DNA from: a virus
Direction: 5' to 3' (one strand)
Virus genome (UHGV): UHGV-0300947
Length of the DNA: 11,196 nt
The notes beneath the pieces are model-generated. The model made no database searches, had not been told where the DNA came from, and saw only the letters and a program-made list of their open reading frames with translations. A program made the translations under genes and the position numbers. This document shows positions 4,810 through 10,804 of this stretch, piece by piece. The stretch's first letter is position 1, and each line of letters opens with the position of its first letter.

Positions 4810-5100
4810 TCATCTTTTAACTCCATATACCGCCAATATCCGTTTCATCGTGGCACTCTGGCGACACTCCTTAAAAATCAGGTTCGTGCTCATCTTTCCT
4901 TCCCGTTCTTCCTTGGTAGCAAACCGGTAATACACCGTTCGCCAGACCTTACCTTCGATAACCAGAAGACCTGCCCGTGCCATTTTAGCCGCGGCCTGAT
5001 TTATGCTGGTTACTGTTGCGCCTGTTAGCGCGGCAACGTCCGGCGCACAGAAGCTATTATGCGTCCCCAGGTAATGAATAATTGCCTCTTTGCCCGTCAT
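4810..5100 (-). CDS. ren: Ren (Rex-exclusion resistance protein)
   Basis: 96 aa MTGKEAIIHYLGTHNSFCAPDVAALTGATVTSINQAAAKMARAGLLVIEGKVWRTVYYRF... matches recalled lambda Ren. Confidence 0.9.
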   Translation of the reverse strand: MTGKEAIIHYLGTHNSFCAPDVAALTGATVTSINQAAAKMARAGLLVIEGKVWRTVYYRFATKEEREGKMSTNLIFKECRQSATMKRILAVYGVKR

Positions 5101-5798
5101 ACACTTGCTCCTTTCAGTCCTAACTTAGCTTTAATTTCTGCGATCTTCGCCAGCGCCTGAACACGATTTAGAGGTCTGCCGCCCATGACAGGAAGTTGTT
5201 TTACTGGTTCAGGTATCGTCTCACCACGGTTAATTCGCGCTGTCATACAGGTCAGTTCATCGGCAGCCTTGCGTCGTAATTCCGCGTCAGTCAGCGCATT
5301 GGCCCGCATGTTCTGGTACAGGTTGGTAACCAGCCAGTAGTGCGCGTTCGATTTCCACGGATAAGACTCTGCATCCGGATACAGGCCTCGCTTCCGGCAA
5401 TACTCGTAAACCATATCAACCAGCTCGCTGACGTTTGGCAGTCCGGCGATAACGGATGCTTCTTCCCGGCACCATGCAACAAACTGCCCGGGTGATGGCA
5501 GAAATGGTCGATTCTGCCGACGGGCTACGCGCATTCCTGCGTTAACCTGTTCCATTGTGGTGATCCCGTTTTCCCGGAAAGCCAGAACCCACTGGCGGCG
5601 GATTTCGTTCAGTTCGTTCTGGTCACGGTTAGCCAGACTCGCCGGGAAAGTTGCCAGTAACTGGCTGAACACACCGTTGATGATCTGCGCTACCTGCTGT
5701 ACCTGCGGCTTTTCGTCGTACTGTTCCGGCATGTTGTTGGCGATCCGACGCATCTGCTCACGGTCAAAATTAACCATCTGTGCGGCGATGTTTTTCAT
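5097..5798 (-). CDS. P: Replication protein P (DnaB helicase loader)
   Basis: 233 aa MKNIAAQMVNFDREQMRRIANNMPEQYDEKPQVQQVAQIINGVFSQLLATF..., near-identical to recalled lambda P. Start overlaps the O stop. Confidence 0.95.
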   Translation of the reverse strand: MKNIAAQMVNFDREQMRRIANNMPEQYDEKPQVQQVAQIINGVFSQLLATFPASLANRDQNELNEIRRQWVLAFRENGITTMEQVNAGMRVARRQNRPFLPSPGQFVAWCREEASVIAGLPNVSELVDMVYEYCRKRGLYPDAESYPWKSNAHYWLVTNLYQNMRANALTDAELRRKAADELTCMTARINRGETIPEPVKQLPVMGGRPLNRVQALAKIAEIKAKLGLKGASV

Positions 5799-6694
5799 AA
5801 ATCCACCCCGTAAATCCAGTCAGTGTTTGTCAGGTCGAGTTTTGGTTTGCAGGCTGTCACACCTGCCTGTTGCTTGTTACGGTTGATTTCGAGCTGGGTC
5901 CACTTGTCGCGGAGTTTGGCCGGGCTCAGCACGTTACCGGACCAGAAGTTGTCCTGGCATGCCCAGCGGAACAGTACACACATGTCGCGATGGTTACGTC
6001 CGTCACGTTCACGCATCAGGCGGATATCGTTAGCCCACCCTGCAAAATTCGGTTTTCTGGCTGATGGCGCGATGGTCTTCACCATGTCAAACATCCATTC
6101 TGCGGCGGTCAGGTCTTCTGCTGTCCCCCACTTGCTGCCGCTCTGAATTGCAGCATCCGGTTTCACCACAGAAAGGTCGTTTTCTGGCTGGTCAGAGGAT
6201 TCGCCAGAATTCTCTGACGAATAATCTTTTCTTTTTTCTTTTGTAATAGTGTCTTTTGTGTCCCCCTGTTTTGAGGGATAGCAATCCCCCAATTTGAGGG
6301 ATGTTTTATCCCTCGTTTTAGGGGATTTTCCCTCGTTTTGAGGGATACACCATTCTGAGATGTTTTTATTTGGTCCAAACATGCCGCCTTGCTGCTTGAT
6401 AATATTCATTCTGACGAGTTCTAACTTGGCTTCATTGCACCGTTTGACGGGTAACTTTGTAATCTCGCTAAGTTGAGAATCGGTGATTCTGTCCATTGGT
6501 TTATTCCATCCATAGGTTTTACGCAGAATGGCAAGCAGCACTTTAAACTGTCGCTTGGTCAGATCTGCGCCTGAATAAGCCTCAAGCAGCATATTTGATA
6601 GTCTGGCGTAACCATCATCGAGATCTGCCACATTACGCTCCTGTTTGGCAAAGTTACCTCTGCAGAAGTTGAGTATTTTTGCTGTATTTGTCAT
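5795..6694 (-). CDS. O: Replication initiator O
   Basis: 299 aa MTNTAKILNFCRGNFAKQERNVADLDDGYARLSNMLLEAYSGADLTKRQFKVLLAILRKTYGWNK..., near-identical to recalled lambda O. The origin iterons lie inside the gene. AGGAG Shine-Dalgarno upstream of the start. Confidence 0.95.
   Translation of the reverse strand: MTNTAKILNFCRGNFAKQERNVADLDDGYARLSNMLLEAYSGADLTKRQFKVLLAILRKTYGWNKPMDRITDSQLSEITKLPVKRCNEAKLELVRMNIIKQQGGMFGPNKNISEWCIPQNEGKSPKTRDKTSLKLGDCYPSKQGDTKDTITKEKRKDYSSENSGESSDQPENDLSVVKPDAAIQSGSKWGTAEDLTAAEWMFDMVKTIAPSARKPNFAGWANDIRLMRERDGRNHRDMCVLFRWACQDNFWSGNVLSPAKLRDKWTQLEINRNKQQAGVTACKPKLDLTNTDWIYGVDL
6221..6346. other. ori-lambda-type replication origin inside O: four approx. 19-bp iterons plus adjacent AT-rich region
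   Basis: Iterons (plus strand): GTCCCCCTGTTTTGAGGGAT (6260-6279), ATCCCCCAATTTGAGGGAT (6284-6302), ATCCCTCGTTTTAGGGGAT (6308-6326), TTCCCTCGTTTTGAGGGAT (6328-6346), each with internal dyad symmetry. AT-rich tract ataatcttttcttttttcttttgtaatagtgtcttttgtg at 6221-6258. Confidence 0.85.
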
Positions 6695-6703
6695 AATGAC
6701 TCC

Positions 6704-6782
6704 TGTGGATTGATCCAGTAATGACCTCAGAATTCCATCTGGATTTGTTCAGAACGCTCGGTTGCCGCCGGGCGTTTTTTAT
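6704..6782 (+). ncRNA. oop: oop-like antisense RNA with its terminator, overlapping the 3' end of cII
   Basis: Candidate promoter TTGAGT (6669-6674), 17-bp spacer, CATAAT (6692-6697). GC-rich dyad aacgctcggttgccgccgggcg (6753-6774) followed by TTTTTTATT. Length (about 77 nt) and sequence match the lambda oop RNA as recalled. Confidence 0.6.
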
Positions 6783-7023
6783 TGGTGAGTCCATCAAGCG
6801 CATACTTAAAAGCCCTGCTAATCGGACTGATGTCTGATGCCATTCCGAAAGCACACAAGACCGAAGCAATAAATCTCCAGTCCGTTCTGCTTATCTTCGA
6901 TTCATGACAGCCAATCATCTTTGCCAGACCGCGCTGGGTAATAGCTGACAGATTGATAAGTAAATCTGTTTCTGCGCGATCAACGTCACGCTGTGATAGT
7001 TTGCTGTAACTTGTTCTTTCCAT
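6727..7023 (-). CDS. cII: CII-like transcriptional activator (mosaic: non-lambda N-terminal DNA-binding part, lambda-type C-terminus)
   Basis: 98 aa. The C-terminal TNKKRPAATERSEQIQMEF equals the recalled lambda CII C-terminus. The N-terminal 80 aa (MERTSYSKLSQRDVDRAETDLLINLSAITQRGLAKMIGCHESKISR...) is HTH-like but divergent from lambda CII. Confidence 0.8.
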   Translation of the reverse strand: MERTSYSKLSQRDVDRAETDLLINLSAITQRGLAKMIGCHESKISRTDWRFIASVLCAFGMASDISPISRAFKYALDGLTNKKRPAATERSEQIQMEF

Positions 7024-7108
7024 TTCTTAAGATTTCCAATAGTGAATAGTTAGTTGAAAGGTATGCGTGGAAACGCATATGGCCTTAGTTGGTCAGATAT
7101 CTTGGAAC

Positions 7109-7154
7109 TCGCTTTTCAGCGACGTAGGACGAATGTCCGTTGTTACAAAGAGCG
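7109..7154 (-). promoter_or_regulatory. nutR-like site (boxA plus boxB hairpin) downstream of cro
   Basis: On the - strand: boxA-like CGCTCTTTG (plus 7154-7146), then about 23 nt, then boxB-like hairpin UCGCU-GAAA-AGCGA (plus 7122-7109). Closely parallels the nutL-like site at 9791-9835, including a shared CTACGT before boxB. Confidence 0.55.
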
Positions 7155-7164
7155 GATCCGCTTA

Positions 7165-7380
7165 TTAAGCGGCTTTGTGTTCCGGCGGGAACACGTCATC
7201 AAGACTGACTTTTGCGCCTAACTTGTTTAGGCACGCAACAAGAGCACGGCATGTTTTAAGGTCTGGGAAGCGACGACCAGATTCCCAATGTCCGATAGCT
7301 CCCTGTGTGCATCCAACTGCCTTAGCAAGTGTTGTTTGAGAGATATTCAGTGACTCTCGATATTTTCGTAGGTTGCTCAT
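7165..7380 (-). CDS. cro: Cro-like HTH repressor (non-lambda specificity)
   Basis: 71 aa from the internal ATG (7380-7378) preceded by GGAGG: MSNLRKYRESLNISQTTLAKAVGCTQGAIGHWESGRRFPDLKTCRALVACLNKLGAKVSLDDVF... The HTH motif QTTLAKAVGCTQGAIGHW is shared with the CI N-terminus. Divergent from cI. The 128-aa track ORF is an artificial upstream extension. Confidence 0.8.
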   Translation of the reverse strand: MSNLRKYRESLNISQTTLAKAVGCTQGAIGHWESGRRFPDLKTCRALVACLNKLGAKVSLDDVFPPEHKAA

Positions 7381-7497
7381 ATGCCCTCCATAGTAAACAC
7401 GAATAAAAAAATACAATATGTACTTTGCGAATACAAGTAAAAATACACATTGTGCATGGATGGTTCCAGTACAGAGCGTAATAATAAGGACATGAAA
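7381..7497. promoter_or_regulatory. Divergent OR-type operator/promoter region (PR towards cro, PRM towards cI)
   Basis: AT-rich intergenic region between divergent cro and cI with repeated ATACAA/ATACAC motifs and short dyads (tacaatatgta, tactttgcgaatacaagta). Candidate PR on the - strand: TTGTAT (plus 7436-7431), 17 bp, TATTTT (plus 7413-7408). Exact operators not resolved. Confidence 0.55.
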
Positions 7498-8151
7498 ATG
7501 AAATGGTATGAACTGGCTAGATCCAGAATGAAAGAGCTCGGCATAACTCAAGAGAAGTTAGCCGAAGAGCTAGGTATGACGCAGGGTGGGATTGGACACT
7601 GGTTGCGCGGATCTCGTCATCCATCTCTTAGTGATATTGGTGTGGTGTTTAAATACCTTGGTATTGATAACATATCATTCAACCACGACGGGACATTTTC
7701 ACCTGTTGGCGAATACTCATCGGCCCCAGTTAAAAAACAATATGAGTACCCTGTTTTTTCTCATGTTCAGGCTGGGATGTTCTCTCCAGAACTCAGAACC
7801 TTTACCAAAGGCGATGCGGAGAGATTGGTAAGCACAACCAAAAAAGCCAGTGACTCTGCATTCTGGCTTGAGGTTGAAGGTAACTCAATGACCGCACCAA
7901 CAGGTTCCAAACCCAGCTTTCCTGACGGGATGTTAATTCTGGTTGACCCTGAGCAAGCTGTTGAGCCCGGCGATTTCTGCATAGCCAGACTTGGTGGTGA
8001 TGAATTTACCTTCAAGAAACTGATCAGGGATAGCGGTCAGGTGTTTCTACAGCCACTAAACCCACAATACCCAATGATCCCATGCAATGAGAGTTGTTCC
8101 GTTGTGGGGAAAGTTATCGCCAGCCAATGGCCTGAAGAGACGTTTGGGTGA
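7498..8151 (+). CDS. cI: CI-type prophage repressor (N-terminal HTH of non-lambda specificity fused to lambda-type S24 autopeptidase C-terminal domain)
   Basis: The C-terminal about 130 aa ([28 protein letters not shown]...GNSM...FTFKKLIRD...[16 protein letters not shown]) matches recalled lambda CI, including the Ala-Gly cleavage site and catalytic Ser/Lys. The N-terminal HTH ([20 protein letters not shown]) differs from lambda. Start chosen at ATG 7498 (AAGGA 7 nt upstream); ATG 7492 or 7456 are alternatives. Confidence 0.9.
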
Positions 8152-8190
8152 TGAAACCACTTTTATCTACAATTTACAGGGCGGTAAACA

Positions 8191-8748
8191 TTGGCAAAAA
8201 TAGATGATTATCAGCCAAGCCAAGTAGAAGTTGATAAAGTACTTTATTGTAAAAAAATAGTTAACTTTTCTGGCGTTAAATGGAAACAGAAACCAAGTCG
8301 CTCTGATATGTGGCTACAAGCCCATATCATCCCCTTGGATGAGGATTGTATACCTATACAAGGGCTAAAGTTTGAACTGAAATGGAAACCAGATCAGGAT
8401 TCAGAACCTGATGACCCGATTTCTTACCCTAAAATAAATATTATTGCTTTCTATCATAACAAGAGGGTTTTCGCGGTAGATACCTATCACTTTGACAAAC
8501 ACACGAATAGTTACAAGGTCGATCATCCGAAGTACCAAGATATCATTTACGGTGCTCACTACCATGTATACTATGAAGAAGCTGGATACTATAGTGATAG
8601 AATAGCGTTTCCAATCGAAGATGACATAAACCCAGATGACCTGGTAGGGTATTGGAATTACTTCTGTAAACATCTGAACATAACTTACTCTGGGAGAATA
8701 CCTTTACCGCTTGAAGATGAGTCGGGGCAAATGGGGTTTGGAATATGA
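8191..8748 (+). CDS. Hypothetical protein A of the rex-position cassette (no recognisable family; acidic, Tyr/His-rich, no predicted TM segment)
   Basis: 185-aa ORF beginning 40 bp after the cI stop. The first in-frame start after the upstream stop is TTG (8191); the first ATG is at codon 40 (8308). Its stop overlaps the start of the next ORF (ATGA). Sequence is visibly AT-richer than flanking lambda-type genes. Confidence 0.6.
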   Translation: MAKIDDYQPSQVEVDKVLYCKKIVNFSGVKWKQKPSRSDMWLQAHIIPLDEDCIPIQGLKFELKWKPDQDSEPDDPISYPKINIIAFYHNKRVFAVDTYHFDKHTNSYKVDHPKYQDIIYGAHYHVYYEEAGYYSDRIAFPIEDDINPDDLVGYWNYFCKHLNITYSGRIPLPLEDESGQMGFGI

Positions 8749-9497
8749 TGTGCTCAACAGTGATCTCACAACTAGGTTTCGAATGCCATCCAATAGGCAA
8801 GACCTTGAGAATTATCAGTCCATTCACTTACTGTGATGATGGAGAGCATGTCGGTGCCTTTATCCGTGAAGTCAATGGTAGGTATTTAGTTAGTGACAGA
8901 TGCGATGCCTTAATGAATATGGAGGCAAGAGGGATCTCGCTTACCAAAAAACGACTTGATGAGATACGACAATTACTGCTTAAAGAAGGCGCAGAACTCA
9001 ATGCTCGAGGAGAAATCATTGCTTGGGCAACAGAAAAGGATGTCGGTGCGATTACATCGAACATAATTAGAGCTGGTATACTCGCATCAACTTTGTCGTT
9101 AGACTGGTATCAGCCAGTTCAAGCTGAAAAGTTTGAAAGTATGGTTATTGATTATCTATATCACACAGAGCTTAGAGACGCACTTTCTCTTCGTGAAAAC
9201 GTATATGGCTTGAGTGGACATCAAATTACCGTCCCTGTAACAATAAAAACCGACATACCTAAATACGTTTTTACATCAAGCGTGAAACACGGAGGAAGCT
9301 GGAATAGTGCTTACTCATTGCTTGGGAAACTAATTGATCTTAAAGCTTCAAGTGAGGAGTATAACAACAGATTTGTTGTTATAGACAGCGAAGCAATTGG
9401 TGATCAAATGCAACAACTCTCCTTACTCTTCCATGAATCAAGCCAAGTTCTACCATTCTCCAAAAGAGAGACTTGGGTTAAGAGACTTGCAGCATAA
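8745..9497 (+). CDS. Hypothetical protein B of the rex-position cassette (no recognisable family; soluble)
   Basis: 250-aa ORF with ATG start overlapping the upstream stop, followed 5 bp downstream by an intrinsic terminator. No motif I can assign; it does not resemble RexA or RexB. Confidence 0.65.
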   Translation: MMCSTVISQLGFECHPIGKTLRIISPFTYCDDGEHVGAFIREVNGRYLVSDRCDALMNMEARGISLTKKRLDEIRQLLLKEGAELNARGEIIAWATEKDVGAITSNIIRAGILASTLSLDWYQPVQAEKFESMVIDYLYHTELRDALSLRENVYGLSGHQITVPVTIKTDIPKYVFTSSVKHGGSWNSAYSLLGKLIDLKASSEEYNNRFVVIDSEAIGDQMQQLSLLFHESSQVLPFSKRETWVKRLAA

Positions 9498-9502
9498 TAC
9501 AA

Positions 9503-9529
9503 CCCGGCCTCAGCGCCGGGTTTTCTTTG
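9503..9529 (+). terminator. Intrinsic terminator closing the cI-cassette operon (tImm-like)
   Basis: CCCGGC-ctcagc-GCCGGG is a perfect 6-bp GC stem, immediately followed by TTTTCTTTG. Confidence 0.7.
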
Positions 9530-9699
9530 CCTCACGTTCGCCCACCTAAAAACACATAACCAATTATATTTATTGAAAAATAAATAGATGCAACCCACTA
9601 AACCACGCAATTCTGATCTCTCCTTACATCGCCGAGGCAATACATCCACGCTAAAAAACAACACTATTAAATACAAAGCGTTATAAAAAACCACGCCAA

Positions 9700-9751
9700 C
9701 TTACAACAAATTGTATTGATCTTGTAAAGTACATATCGTACTATTTAACCG
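9700..9751 (+). promoter_or_regulatory. Candidate PL promoter with OL-type operators
   Basis: TTGATC (9716-9721), 17-bp spacer, TACTAT (9739-9744). Overlapping dyads TACAACAAATTGTA (9702-9715) and AGTACATATCGTACT (9729-9743) share TACA/TGTA half-sites with the OR region. Confidence 0.5.
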
Positions 9752-9790
9752 TCAGCAGGACGCTGGAAGCCAAATGGAACAGACTGGCAG

Positions 9791-9835
9791 GCTCTTTAAA
9801 CAACGTCGACTCTCGACTACGTGGCTGAAAAGCCA
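9791..9835 (+). promoter_or_regulatory. nutL-like site (boxA plus boxB hairpin)
   Basis: boxA-like GCTCTTTAA (9791-9799) and boxB-like hairpin UGGCU-GAAA-AGCCA (9822-9835), about 100 nt upstream of N. Confidence 0.6.
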
Positions 9836-9933
9836 GATCACCCAACCACATAAGCTGTGGGATGCAATGCCGAAGCAACCGTCTCAGGAGGAGCTTCGAG
9901 ATTGCATCGCCAAAGTTTATTCGGGAGGAATCC

Positions 9934-10206
9934 ATGTCCAGAAAAACAGAATTTAAAGGCACCGCAGCTTCTCGCCGTAGAGCTCGTCGCGCAAATCTGC
10001 AAAGTCAGGAGGCGATCAGCTCCGACAAGCTACACAGGCCAACCCCTTCACGAGTGGTCTTGCAATGCAAGCTCAAACCAGCAATGAGAGCAGAAGTGAT
10101 AACTCTGACAACGTTGACCAGAAAATATGAAGGTTCAACTTGTCTTCCGAACGTAGCTCTTTACGCGGCAGGCTACCGGAAATCAAAACAACTGACGGCG
10201 AGATGA
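9934..10206 (+). CDS. N: N-type antitermination protein (arginine-rich motif; C-terminus resembling P22 gp24-type N)
   Basis: 90 aa from ATG 9934 (GGGAGG 5 nt upstream): MSRKTEFKGTAASRRRARRANLQ... with an N-terminal arginine-rich motif. The C-terminus ...LPNVALYAAGYRKSKQLTAR resembles the recalled P22 N C-terminus. The longer track ORFs are upstream extensions. Confidence 0.8.
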   Translation: MSRKTEFKGTAASRRRARRANLQSQEAISSDKLHRPTPSRVVLQCKLKPAMRAEVITLTTLTRKYEGSTCLPNVALYAAGYRKSKQLTAR

Positions 10207-10222
10207 TAAATTCATTTGCTAA

Positions 10223-10804
10223 TTACTTGTTTTTGCCATGCTTATCCTGAGCGATAAGTTCATCCATAAGGCTGTCTGCCTTCCCGGCAAACCTAATGTA
10301 GCACTCATGTCTATAGCTTTCAGGGATAACGAAACGGTCGGTATCAGGATATCCAACAGCAGGAGGCCTTCGAACGAGGAGTCCTTTTTTGAGCAATGAA
10401 ATTGATTCATGAGCGCCCTTTTCCGTTTGTAGCTGGTTATTAGCGGCTACAGCGAATGCCAAATACGCTCTTTCTCCAAGAGTTAACGAATCAAACAAAT
10501 CTTGCACATATTTTTCTTCTTTAGATTTGCGCTTCTGAGCAGCGAATACCTCAATTCTTTCAGTCACAGCGTGATAAGCGGAATTAACAACGCCGTTAAG
10601 CACATAGCTAACGCAAAACAACAGGATGTAATACATCCAGTAATGAGGAAGGATTTCTGGATTATGCAGGTTTATCCATTCTTTTACGCTTACCGGCATA
10701 ACAATAATCAATATGATCAGGATGATTAGCATATGAATCAACTGTTTAAGTGTCATTCCTTGCAGGAAAAAATGCATTAGTTCCTGCCACCATGAGTTGT
10801 TCAT
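10223..10804 (-). CDS. sieB: SieB superinfection exclusion protein (membrane protein)
   Basis: 193 aa MNNSWWQELMHFFLQGMTLKQLIHMLIILIILIIVMPVSVKEWINLHNPEILPHYWMYYILLFCVSYVL... with two hydrophobic helices; matches the lambda/P22 SieB family as recalled. Convergent with N. Confidence 0.85.
   Translation of the reverse strand: MNNSWWQELMHFFLQGMTLKQLIHMLIILIILIIVMPVSVKEWINLHNPEILPHYWMYYILLFCVSYVLNGVVNSAYHAVTERIEVFAAQKRKSKEEKYVQDLFDSLTLGERAYLAFAVAANNQLQTEKGAHESISLLKKGLLVRRPPAVGYPDTDRFVIPESYRHECYIRFAGKADSLMDELIAQDKHGKNK

Follow-up and report, generated by a model that had tools for sequence, protein, structure and literature searches.

Does the immunity region of the viral genome UHGV-0300947 join a lambda-type CI C-terminal domain (CTD) to a DNA-binding module, a Cro and operators of another kind, and, if so, does it define an immunity specificity that was not known before? 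An original prediction, made from the DNA alone, had answered the first question in the affirmative and implied the same answer to the second. We re-examined them in a stretch of 11,196 nucleotides of this genome (hereafter the window), in which positions 7165-8151 are exactly cro, the OR region and cI. The reading that we favor, with a probability of roughly 85%, is that of a complete, ordinary lambdoid immunity switch belonging to an already catalogued type ('CI Clade I').

Gene order in the window

The genes of the window are those of a lambdoid early region, which runs opposite to the standard lambda map. Its main features are as follows.

Upstream of P in the window: lysis genes, Q, nin genes and ren
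5097-5798, minus strand: P
5795-6694, minus strand: O
6727-7023, minus strand: cII (Pfam Phage_CII, E 7e-34)
6790-7023, minus strand: non-lambda 5' part of cII (blastn against lambda)
7165-7380, minus strand: cro (open reading frame and translation, 71 aa)
7381-7491: intergenic OR region, 111 bp
7492-8151, plus strand: cI, from the likelier start, ATG 7492
8191-9497, plus strand: two open reading frames beyond cI
9501-9522, plus strand: intrinsic terminator closing the cI operon (terminator scan)
Between the terminator at 9501-9522 and N: intergenic OL region
N, plus strand, ending at 10206 (Pfam N_peptide, E 1e-32)
10223-10804, minus strand: sieB

The layout of a lambdoid immunity region is thus present, with cI and cro diverging around a tripartite operator and a second tripartite operator upstream of N. 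The terminator lies in lambda-homologous DNA that originates from just downstream of rexB (window 9501-9622 is 90% identical to lambda 35708-35826 by blastn), and OL and N together make up a non-lambda patch of their own. When the whole 11.2-kb window was searched at a coverage of at least 80%, no match was obtained in any complete E. coli genome searched. Taken whole, the mosaic of the window is its own combination.

A lambda-like tail and a different head in CI

The cI gene falls into two parts of different affinity.

7492-7740, plus strand: immunity-specific part, encoding the HTH_3 head and the N-terminal part of the linker, residues 1-83 (Pfam, blastn)
7741-8151, plus strand: lambda-homologous part, encoding the remainder of the linker and the S24 peptidase/oligomerization domain (blastn, Pfam)

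The CTD had been predicted to be essentially that of lambda, and this is what we observed. The stretch of cI that begins with codon Y84 (nt 7741) and ends with the stop codon is 93.4% identical to lambda at the nucleotide level (blastn), and residues 84-219 are identical to lambda CI at 135 of 136 positions in an ungapped alignment. The only blastn match to lambda within 7165-8151 was 7741-8152, corresponding to lambda 37226-37637. The tail matched the lambda repressor structure 3bdn with an E value of 2.6e-96 and the lambda CI fragments in the PDB with E values of 1e-65 to 1e-96, and Pfam recognized Peptidase_S24 in the C-terminal part (E 1.1e-28). The predicted cleavage site and Ser/Lys pair are in place: the Ala-Gly scissile bond is encoded in the linker by codons 7771-7776 (A94-G95, equivalent to lambda A111-G112), the catalytic Ser by codon 7885-7887 (S132, lambda S149) and the catalytic Lys by codon 8014-8016 (K175, lambda K192). 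The 27 nucleotide differences from lambda in the tail amount to 26 synonymous codons and a single non-synonymous one, W129L, the sole amino acid change, which is located near the border of linker and CTD. Such a ratio indicates that the tail is under strong purifying selection and that the exchange was not very recent.

The head is another matter, as had also been foreseen. The N-terminal 83 residues are about 20% identical to those of lambda (MAFFT table; a pairwise alignment gave 23 identities in 107 columns). An HTH_3 domain was found at residues 11-58 (Pfam, E 1.9e-10), and the lambda N-terminal domain (NTD) was the best natural match to the head in the PDB, with an E value of about 5e-4. 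With this HTH head and the S24 tail, CI has the domain build of a LexA-family phage repressor. Over its full length, counted from the shorter start, CI is 65% identical to lambda CI in our own alignment. Glu is present in CI at the alignment positions of lambda E34 and D38, which we take to be the positive-control residues of lambda CI. The start codon itself needed attention. In the database, cI begins at ATG 7456 (231 aa), which lies inside OR2, so that the open reading frame would span OR2 and OR3. The Salmonella homologue, which is colinear, is annotated from MKMNW and so backs a start at MKMKW. For both reasons, ATG 7492 or 7498 is the likelier start of cI.

Identity to lambda within cI sets in sharply at the Y84 codon (lambda Y101) and ends at the stop codon. 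The joint, Q83/Y84 in the window and E100/Y101 in lambda, is in the linker, ten residues before the cleavage site; relative to lambda, the mosaic boundary that had been proposed inside cI is therefore real. No blastn similarity to lambda was found across 6790-7740, and homology (98%) restarts at 6789 and extends through the 3' part of cII into O. An immunity-specific block of 951 bp (6790-7740) is thus flanked by two lambda-like arms, one made of cII-3'/O (98%) and the other of the cI tail (93%). An exchange of immunity cassettes by homologous recombination is expected to give such an arrangement.

Cro and the recognition helix that it shares with CI

The mechanically called open reading frame 7165-7551 over-extends cro, and the real gene is 7165-7380. 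Its translation carries the motif quoted in the original prediction (VGCTQGAIGHWESG), and the motif quoted for CI was likewise found. Cro contains an HTH_3 domain (Pfam, E 4.2e-12). The Pfam family PF09048, which lambda Cro matches with an E value of 6e-35, was absent from it, in agreement with the view that this Cro is not lambda's. It shares 35% identity with the CI head (E 9e-13), and among solved structures its closest relative is 28tn_A (E 4.5e-17); the records of PhiR57_1 and AP005153 label the gene Cro or putative cro. By these comparisons it is predicted to be an all-helical protein of the HTH_3 type, paralogous to the CI head and not of the lambda fold.

The near-identity of the CI and Cro recognition helices (TQGGIGHW and TQGAIGHW) was confirmed, and we compared the helix pairs across lineages.

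This window: CI TQGGIGHW; Cro TQGAIGHW
SPN9CC / sal5: CI TKGAVSHW; Cro TRGAVCHY
S107 / mEpX1: CI APSRLGNY; Cro GQSRIANY

The two helices co-vary in all three lineages, which provides comparative support for CI and Cro reading the same operators. Within the window, helix 3 is identical at 8 of 11 positions against a background of 35%, for which a hand-calculated, post-hoc binomial probability is about 0.01.

Operators and promoters

Six 17-bp dyads, three in OR and three in OL, are the candidate operators (no strand is assigned).

7409-7425: OR1, AAATACAATATGTACTT; identical to a putative operator of AP005153; 21 bits, the best matrix score of the window
7441-7457: OR2, AAATACACATTGTGCAT; identical to a putative operator of AP005153; matrix
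7467-7483: OR3, CAGTACAGAGCGTAATA; identical to a putative operator of AP005153; overlaps the putative PRM
9669-9685: OL3, AAATACAAAGCGTTATA; 11.2 bits, second-best match outside OR; one base off a putative operator of AP005153
9702-9718: OL2, TACAACAAATTGTATTG; 8.3 bits; overlaps the putative PL -35; counterpart in AP005153, putative operator TAGAACAAATTGTATTG
9727-9743: OL1, AAGTACATATCGTACTA; 17.7 bits, best match outside OR; overlaps the putative PL -10; identical to a putative operator of AP005153

The consensus half-site, W-A-R-T-A-C-A-A-W, agrees with the non-lambda half-sites (ATACAA/TTGTAT and TACA/TGTA) read earlier from this region, and A5-C6 is invariant in 20 of 20 distinct half-sites. 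Measured from center to center, neighboring operators are separated by 32 and 26 bp in OR and by 25 and 33 bp in OL. A search for dyads common to OR and OL had been recommended as a check. We trained a half-site matrix on the three OR dyads only and scanned all 11 kb with it; outside OR, the sites at 9727 and 9669 ranked as the top two and that at 9702 ranked sixth, all of them upstream of N. Three such matches within 100 bp occurred in 0 of 300 dinucleotide shuffles, and the OL1 score was reached in 1 of 300. The operator dyads are more than chance.

Promoters were assigned by hand.

Putative PR, minus strand: -35 TTGTAT 7436-7431, spacer 17, -10 TATTTT 7413-7408
Putative PRM, plus strand: weak -35 TGGATG 7457-7462, spacer 17, -10 AATAAT 7480-7485
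Putative PL, plus strand: -35 TTGATC 9716-9721, spacer 17, -10 TACTAT 9739-9744

All three match the consensus at 8 of 12 positions or fewer, and a consensus scan (at least 9/12) of OR 7350-7530 and OL 9480-9960 found no promoter. The putative PR, with 8/12, agrees with the 'putative major rightward promoter' of AP005153, and the PRM annotated there has its -35 in the same place (7457-7462) and a -10 region at 7480-7495 that contains AATAAT. OR1 overlaps the putative PR spacer and -10, and OR1 and OL1 are positioned alike with respect to the putative -10 elements of PR and PL. The predicted PRM start is at or adjoining the A of ATG 7492, which suggests that the cI mRNA is leaderless, as in lambda. 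The center of OR2 is at about -43 from this start, suggesting a class-II-type activation of PRM from OR2, again as in lambda.

One could argue that the dyads are not true operators, or not sites common to Cro and CI, and that the likeness of the two helices reflects paralogy only. The dyads are indeed imperfect and A+T-rich within an intergenic region that is itself A+T-rich, and the figure of 0.01 for the helix was obtained post hoc. Against this, the OL sites were recovered by a model trained on OR only, OR1 and OL1 are equally placed with respect to the -10 elements, and the positions of the sites are conserved in the Stx1 phage and in phage Dewey. In the latter, a diverged variant, all six positions and the invariant A5-C6 are kept and the DNA between the operators has changed; OR2 is retained with compensating symmetry and OR3 is a one-base variant (TAGTACAGAGCGTAATA). 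Separate sites for CI and Cro would also sit badly with the co-variation of their helices in three lineages. We therefore consider this objection very unlikely to hold.

Proposed working of the switch

On the reading of an ordinary lambdoid switch, CI dimers would bind the six 17-bp dyads through the HTH_3 head, with TQGGIGHW as the recognition helix. Bound to OR1-OR3, between cro and cI, and to OL1-OL3, upstream of N, CI would shut PR and PL; at OR2, with its center some 43 bp before the cI ATG, it would probably activate the weak PRM and so give a leaderless cI mRNA. Dimerization, pairwise cooperativity and OL-OR looping would be functions of the lambda-like CTD, which would also carry out RecA-stimulated self-cleavage at Ala94-Gly95. 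Since a single residue separates the CTD from that of lambda, SOS induction should be lambda-like. Cro would compete with CI at the same operators and run the lytic side. Whereas gene content, homology, the junction, the operator statistics and the distribution of the module are observed, we infer binding, promoter positions, activation, cooperativity and cleavage. In particular, OR1 and OR2 are spaced by 32 bp, compared with 24 bp in lambda, so that pairwise cooperativity with a lambda CTD is an assumption.

The same immunity type in other phages and in E. coli genomes

The segment cro-OR-cI is 100% identical in phages ev207, ev017, PhiR57_1 and PhiR63_2, and 98.5-98.7% identical in 2G7b, PhiR11_1, the Stx1 converting phage, Stx2 phage II, HUN/2013 and about 20 PA Stx2a phages. 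The CI head is identical at 83 of 83 residues in Stx2-II, the PA phages and ev017. Annotation of this immunity region in Shiga-toxin phages dates from 2003: records AP005153 and AP005154 (Stx1 and Stx2-II converting phages) describe cI as 'similar to phage lambda CI' and contain a putative cro and three plus three putative operators, and AP005153 also marks promoters. The CI set of Llarena et al. 2022 (PMC8951638) includes BAC77937.1, Eru3, and in that work 'Clade I' stands nearest to lambda among the CI types, with an overall identity of 61%. Among 5,426 complete E. coli genomes, the immunity-specific 576 bp were present in 776 (14%), including prophages of Nissle 1917 and of the type strain ATCC 11775.

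These results bear directly on the claim of a distinct immunity specificity. It is distinct from that of lambda, as proposed; it had, however, already been annotated in AP005153/AP005154 and described as 'CI Clade I'. The suggestion that it was new largely fell away, the head, Cro and operators being identical, or nearly so, to those of a deposited immunity type. That the specificity has escaped description altogether could be argued from the searchable literature, in which we found no footprinting, biochemical or genetic study of this immunity type and no paper containing the helix or operator strings. Given identical or near-identical annotated records, a described Clade I and a module carried by 776 of 5,426 genomes, this is almost certainly wrong. 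The immunity type is known and annotated, rather than 'well characterized'.

Three leads from the literature were followed and rejected. The 'phage repressor pr' of Nissle 1917 (Bury et al. 2018) is not cI, as its primers map to 6700-7069, the cII homologue. The work of Sedhom and Solomon 2023 on lambda CI at Stx phage operators concerns VT2-Sakai and Stx2-I, which have other immunity types. The operators of the BAA2326 (O104:H4) repressor are unrelated in sequence.

Origin of the mosaic cI

We compared the heads and tails of seven repressors separately.

Heads: window, SPN9CC and sal5, 48-49% (MAFFT table), 52% pairwise
Heads: lambda and P8983, 56%
Heads: S107 and mEpX1, 84%
Tails: window and lambda, 99%
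Tails: sal5 and S107, 87%
Tails: P8983 and mEpX1, about 61-65% to all

The histories of head and tail disagree across these relatives, which indicates that the linker is a recurrent exchange point. Over the same seven repressors, the type of Cro tracks the type of head.

Could the pattern have arisen by vertical descent from a common ancestor, without recombination, the CTD having been frozen and the head having diverged towards a new specificity? Purifying selection on the CTD is very strong (26 synonymous codons against 1 non-synonymous), and the heads are still remote homologues (lambda NTD, E about 5e-4), as this explanation would have it. It does not, however, account for a CTD that is 93.4% identical in nucleotides next to a region, left of 7741, with no blastn similarity and about 20% protein identity, nor for an abrupt change at a single codon boundary, nor for the conflict between head and tail trees of seven repressors. 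We regard descent without exchange as highly improbable.

Exchange at the linker being preferred, its direction can be read in more than one way. To speak of 'lambda's CTD with a foreign head' is lambda-centric wording, as neither cI is singled out as 'the hybrid'. It is conceivable that lambda is the recombinant, the head family of the window being the original partner of this CTD family and lambda's head a graft, or that CTDs have been repeatedly homogenized among prophages residing together in E. coli. These scenarios are favored by sal5 and SPN9CC, which carry the head family of the window (49-52%) on a CTD that is 80% identical, and by P8983, which has the head family of lambda on a CTD that is only 65% identical. 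An opportunity for exchange exists, in that both immunity modules reside together in 183 complete E. coli genomes (see below). Nothing polarizes the event, however; seven sequences are too few, and P8983 is perhaps itself recombinant. We hold this pair of scenarios to be a real possibility, at somewhat less than even odds.

The number of shared hosts was obtained by searching the same 5,426 genomes with the immunity-specific 604 bp of lambda, found in 620, and with a concatenated query for the union. The latter matched 1,213 genomes, compared with 776 + 620 for the separate queries; thus, 183 genomes carry both modules. About 89 would be expected under independence, a figure uncorrected for phylogeny. 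The idea that a shared CTD causes incompatibility and hence depletion of the two modules from the same genomes was rejected, since the 183 observed are about twice this expectation, an excess to be read with caution. With CTDs identical at 135 of 136 residues, mixed dimers and higher oligomers of the two repressors should form where both are made, and frequent co-residence of repressors with nearly the same oligomerization domain raises the question of cross-talk between them. We tentatively suggest, as a rather doubtful idea, that the formation of mixed CI dimers could lead to mutual titration, to induction at a lower threshold or to a coupled induction of co-resident prophages. If so, the two 'heteroimmune' groups would not be independent, and the DNA of the shared CTD would be a hot spot for the reshuffling of heads.

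As a discovery, the region carries little weight; it is a textbook case of modular phage evolution, in which the set of CI, Cro and operators travels together and the domain for oligomerization and cleavage is exchangeable. Its interest lies elsewhere: this immunity type controls Stx1 and Stx2a prophages of E. coli O157:H7, and the junction, the operator set and the promoter geometry form a basis for the quick design of biochemical work.

Comparison with known systems

The 434 and P22 paradigm is that of a small helical Cro paralogous to the head of the repressor. The window resembles these phages in having a Cro that belongs, like the CI head, to the HTH_3 fold family and carries an almost identical recognition helix; Cro and CI would be expected to compete for the same operators. 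It differs from them in that sequence similarity is marginal (E 0.009-0.5) and the operators are of another length and sequence.

The Salmonella P22-like phages SPN9CC and 103203_sal5 are closer. Their CI (219 or 217 aa) is colinear with that of the window and has a head of the same family (48-52% identity) and a CTD that is 80% identical; their Cro is of the same family (40%), with a conserved ...DDVFPP..KAA tail, and their OR region has dyads of the TACA...TGTA type. Unlike the window, they have a CTD of a Salmonella sub-type, and in CI as well as in Cro, Lys or Arg replaces Gln as residue 2 of the recognition helix, which makes a different specificity probable.

With lambda, the window shares 17-bp operators, three each at OR and OL, OR1 and OL1 lying over the -10/spacer, OR2 at about -42 or -43 from the cI start, a homologous terminator after the rex slot and a likely leaderless cI. 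In contrast to lambda, its CI head lacks the N-terminal arm, its half-site is WARTACAA (lambda TATCACCG) and rexAB is replaced. None of the marks of imm lambda is found in it, namely a lambda-type head, half-sites of the TATCACCGC type and a PF09048 Cro.

The closest systems are the Stx1 and Stx2-II phages, and the group with the same immunity region also takes in phage 2851. Four of their six operators are identical to those of the window, one is off by 1 base and one by 2 bases, and the CTD of their CI is lambda-like. The remainder of the early region sets them apart: in the window, O and P are of the lambda type and a cassette of two genes takes the place of rexAB, whereas the Stx phages have a different replication module (Eru3) and other open reading frames after cI.

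A candidate defence cassette at the rexA-rexB position

By blastn, homology to lambda ended at the stop codon of cI, the mosaic repressor gene, and returned from 9501. Two overlapping ORFs occupy exactly the position that rexA-rexB holds in lambda:

8191-8748, + strand: ORF A, 185 aa, 3' of the cI stop (8151), overlapping ORF B
8745-9497, + strand: ORF B, 250 aa, DUF1828, 5' of a terminator at 9501-9522

Both matched PDC-M24, a candidate defence system in PADLOC, with A (E 4.8e-4) preceding B (E 4.7e-10), and both also matched PHROGs of unknown function. The pair (8191-9497) is probably a defence cassette that is expressed from the prophage and co-transcribed with cI.

Start of cI and a structural relative of Cro

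Database annotations begin cI at ATG 7456 (231 aa), and the mechanically called ORF begins at TTG 7450; from either codon, the reading frame runs through OR2 and OR3, two of the three putative operators between cro and cI. We favour a start at ATG 7492 or 7498 (219 or 217 aa), on the basis of a Salmonella homologue and of the promoter geometry around the putative PRM. As for Cro, 69 residues, including its ...SIDDVFPP tail, aligned (E 4.5e-17) with PDB 28tn_A, a solved structure of 82 residues that is named 'lambda repressor-like protein'.

The Nissle 1917 'phage repressor' corresponds to cII

Bury et al. 2018 (PMC5987069) reported that a 'phage repressor (pr)' from prophage 3 of E. coli Nissle 1917 lowered the plating of lambda and of Stx phages by a factor of about 200. 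The primers used to clone pr (PMC5987069) map to 6700-6720, with one mismatch, and to 7051-7069, and the interval 6700-7069 that they bound contains:

6727-7023, - strand: cII homologue

Thus, the amplified gene is the cII homologue and not cI. 'Phage repressor' is also the label that the cII homologue carries in the records of phages ev207 and ev017.

Co-occurrence with lambda immunity and comparison with related phages

The immunity module of the window was present in 776 of the 5,426 complete E. coli genomes searched, and that of lambda in 620. Both were found together in 183, roughly double what independent occurrence would give, as raw genome counts that ignore phylogeny. In the window, the repressor tail is identical to that of lambda at 135 of 136 positions.

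The window also encodes an N that differs from that of lambda:

9862-10206, + strand: N (Pfam N_peptide, E 1e-32)

Its homologue in AP005153, an Stx1 converting phage record, is annotated as HK97-like. The annotated start of N varies by record, giving 273 nt in PhiR57_1 and ev207, 345 nt in AP005153 and 123 nt in ev017.

In complete E. coli genomes, coverage of the 11.2-kb window did not reach 80% in any case; the highest value was 74%. The phages ev207, ev017 and PhiR57_1 have the O-to-sieB part in common with the window; in all three, an OmpD/NmpC porin gene lies between Q and the lysis genes, replacing the Q/late-region genes of the window.
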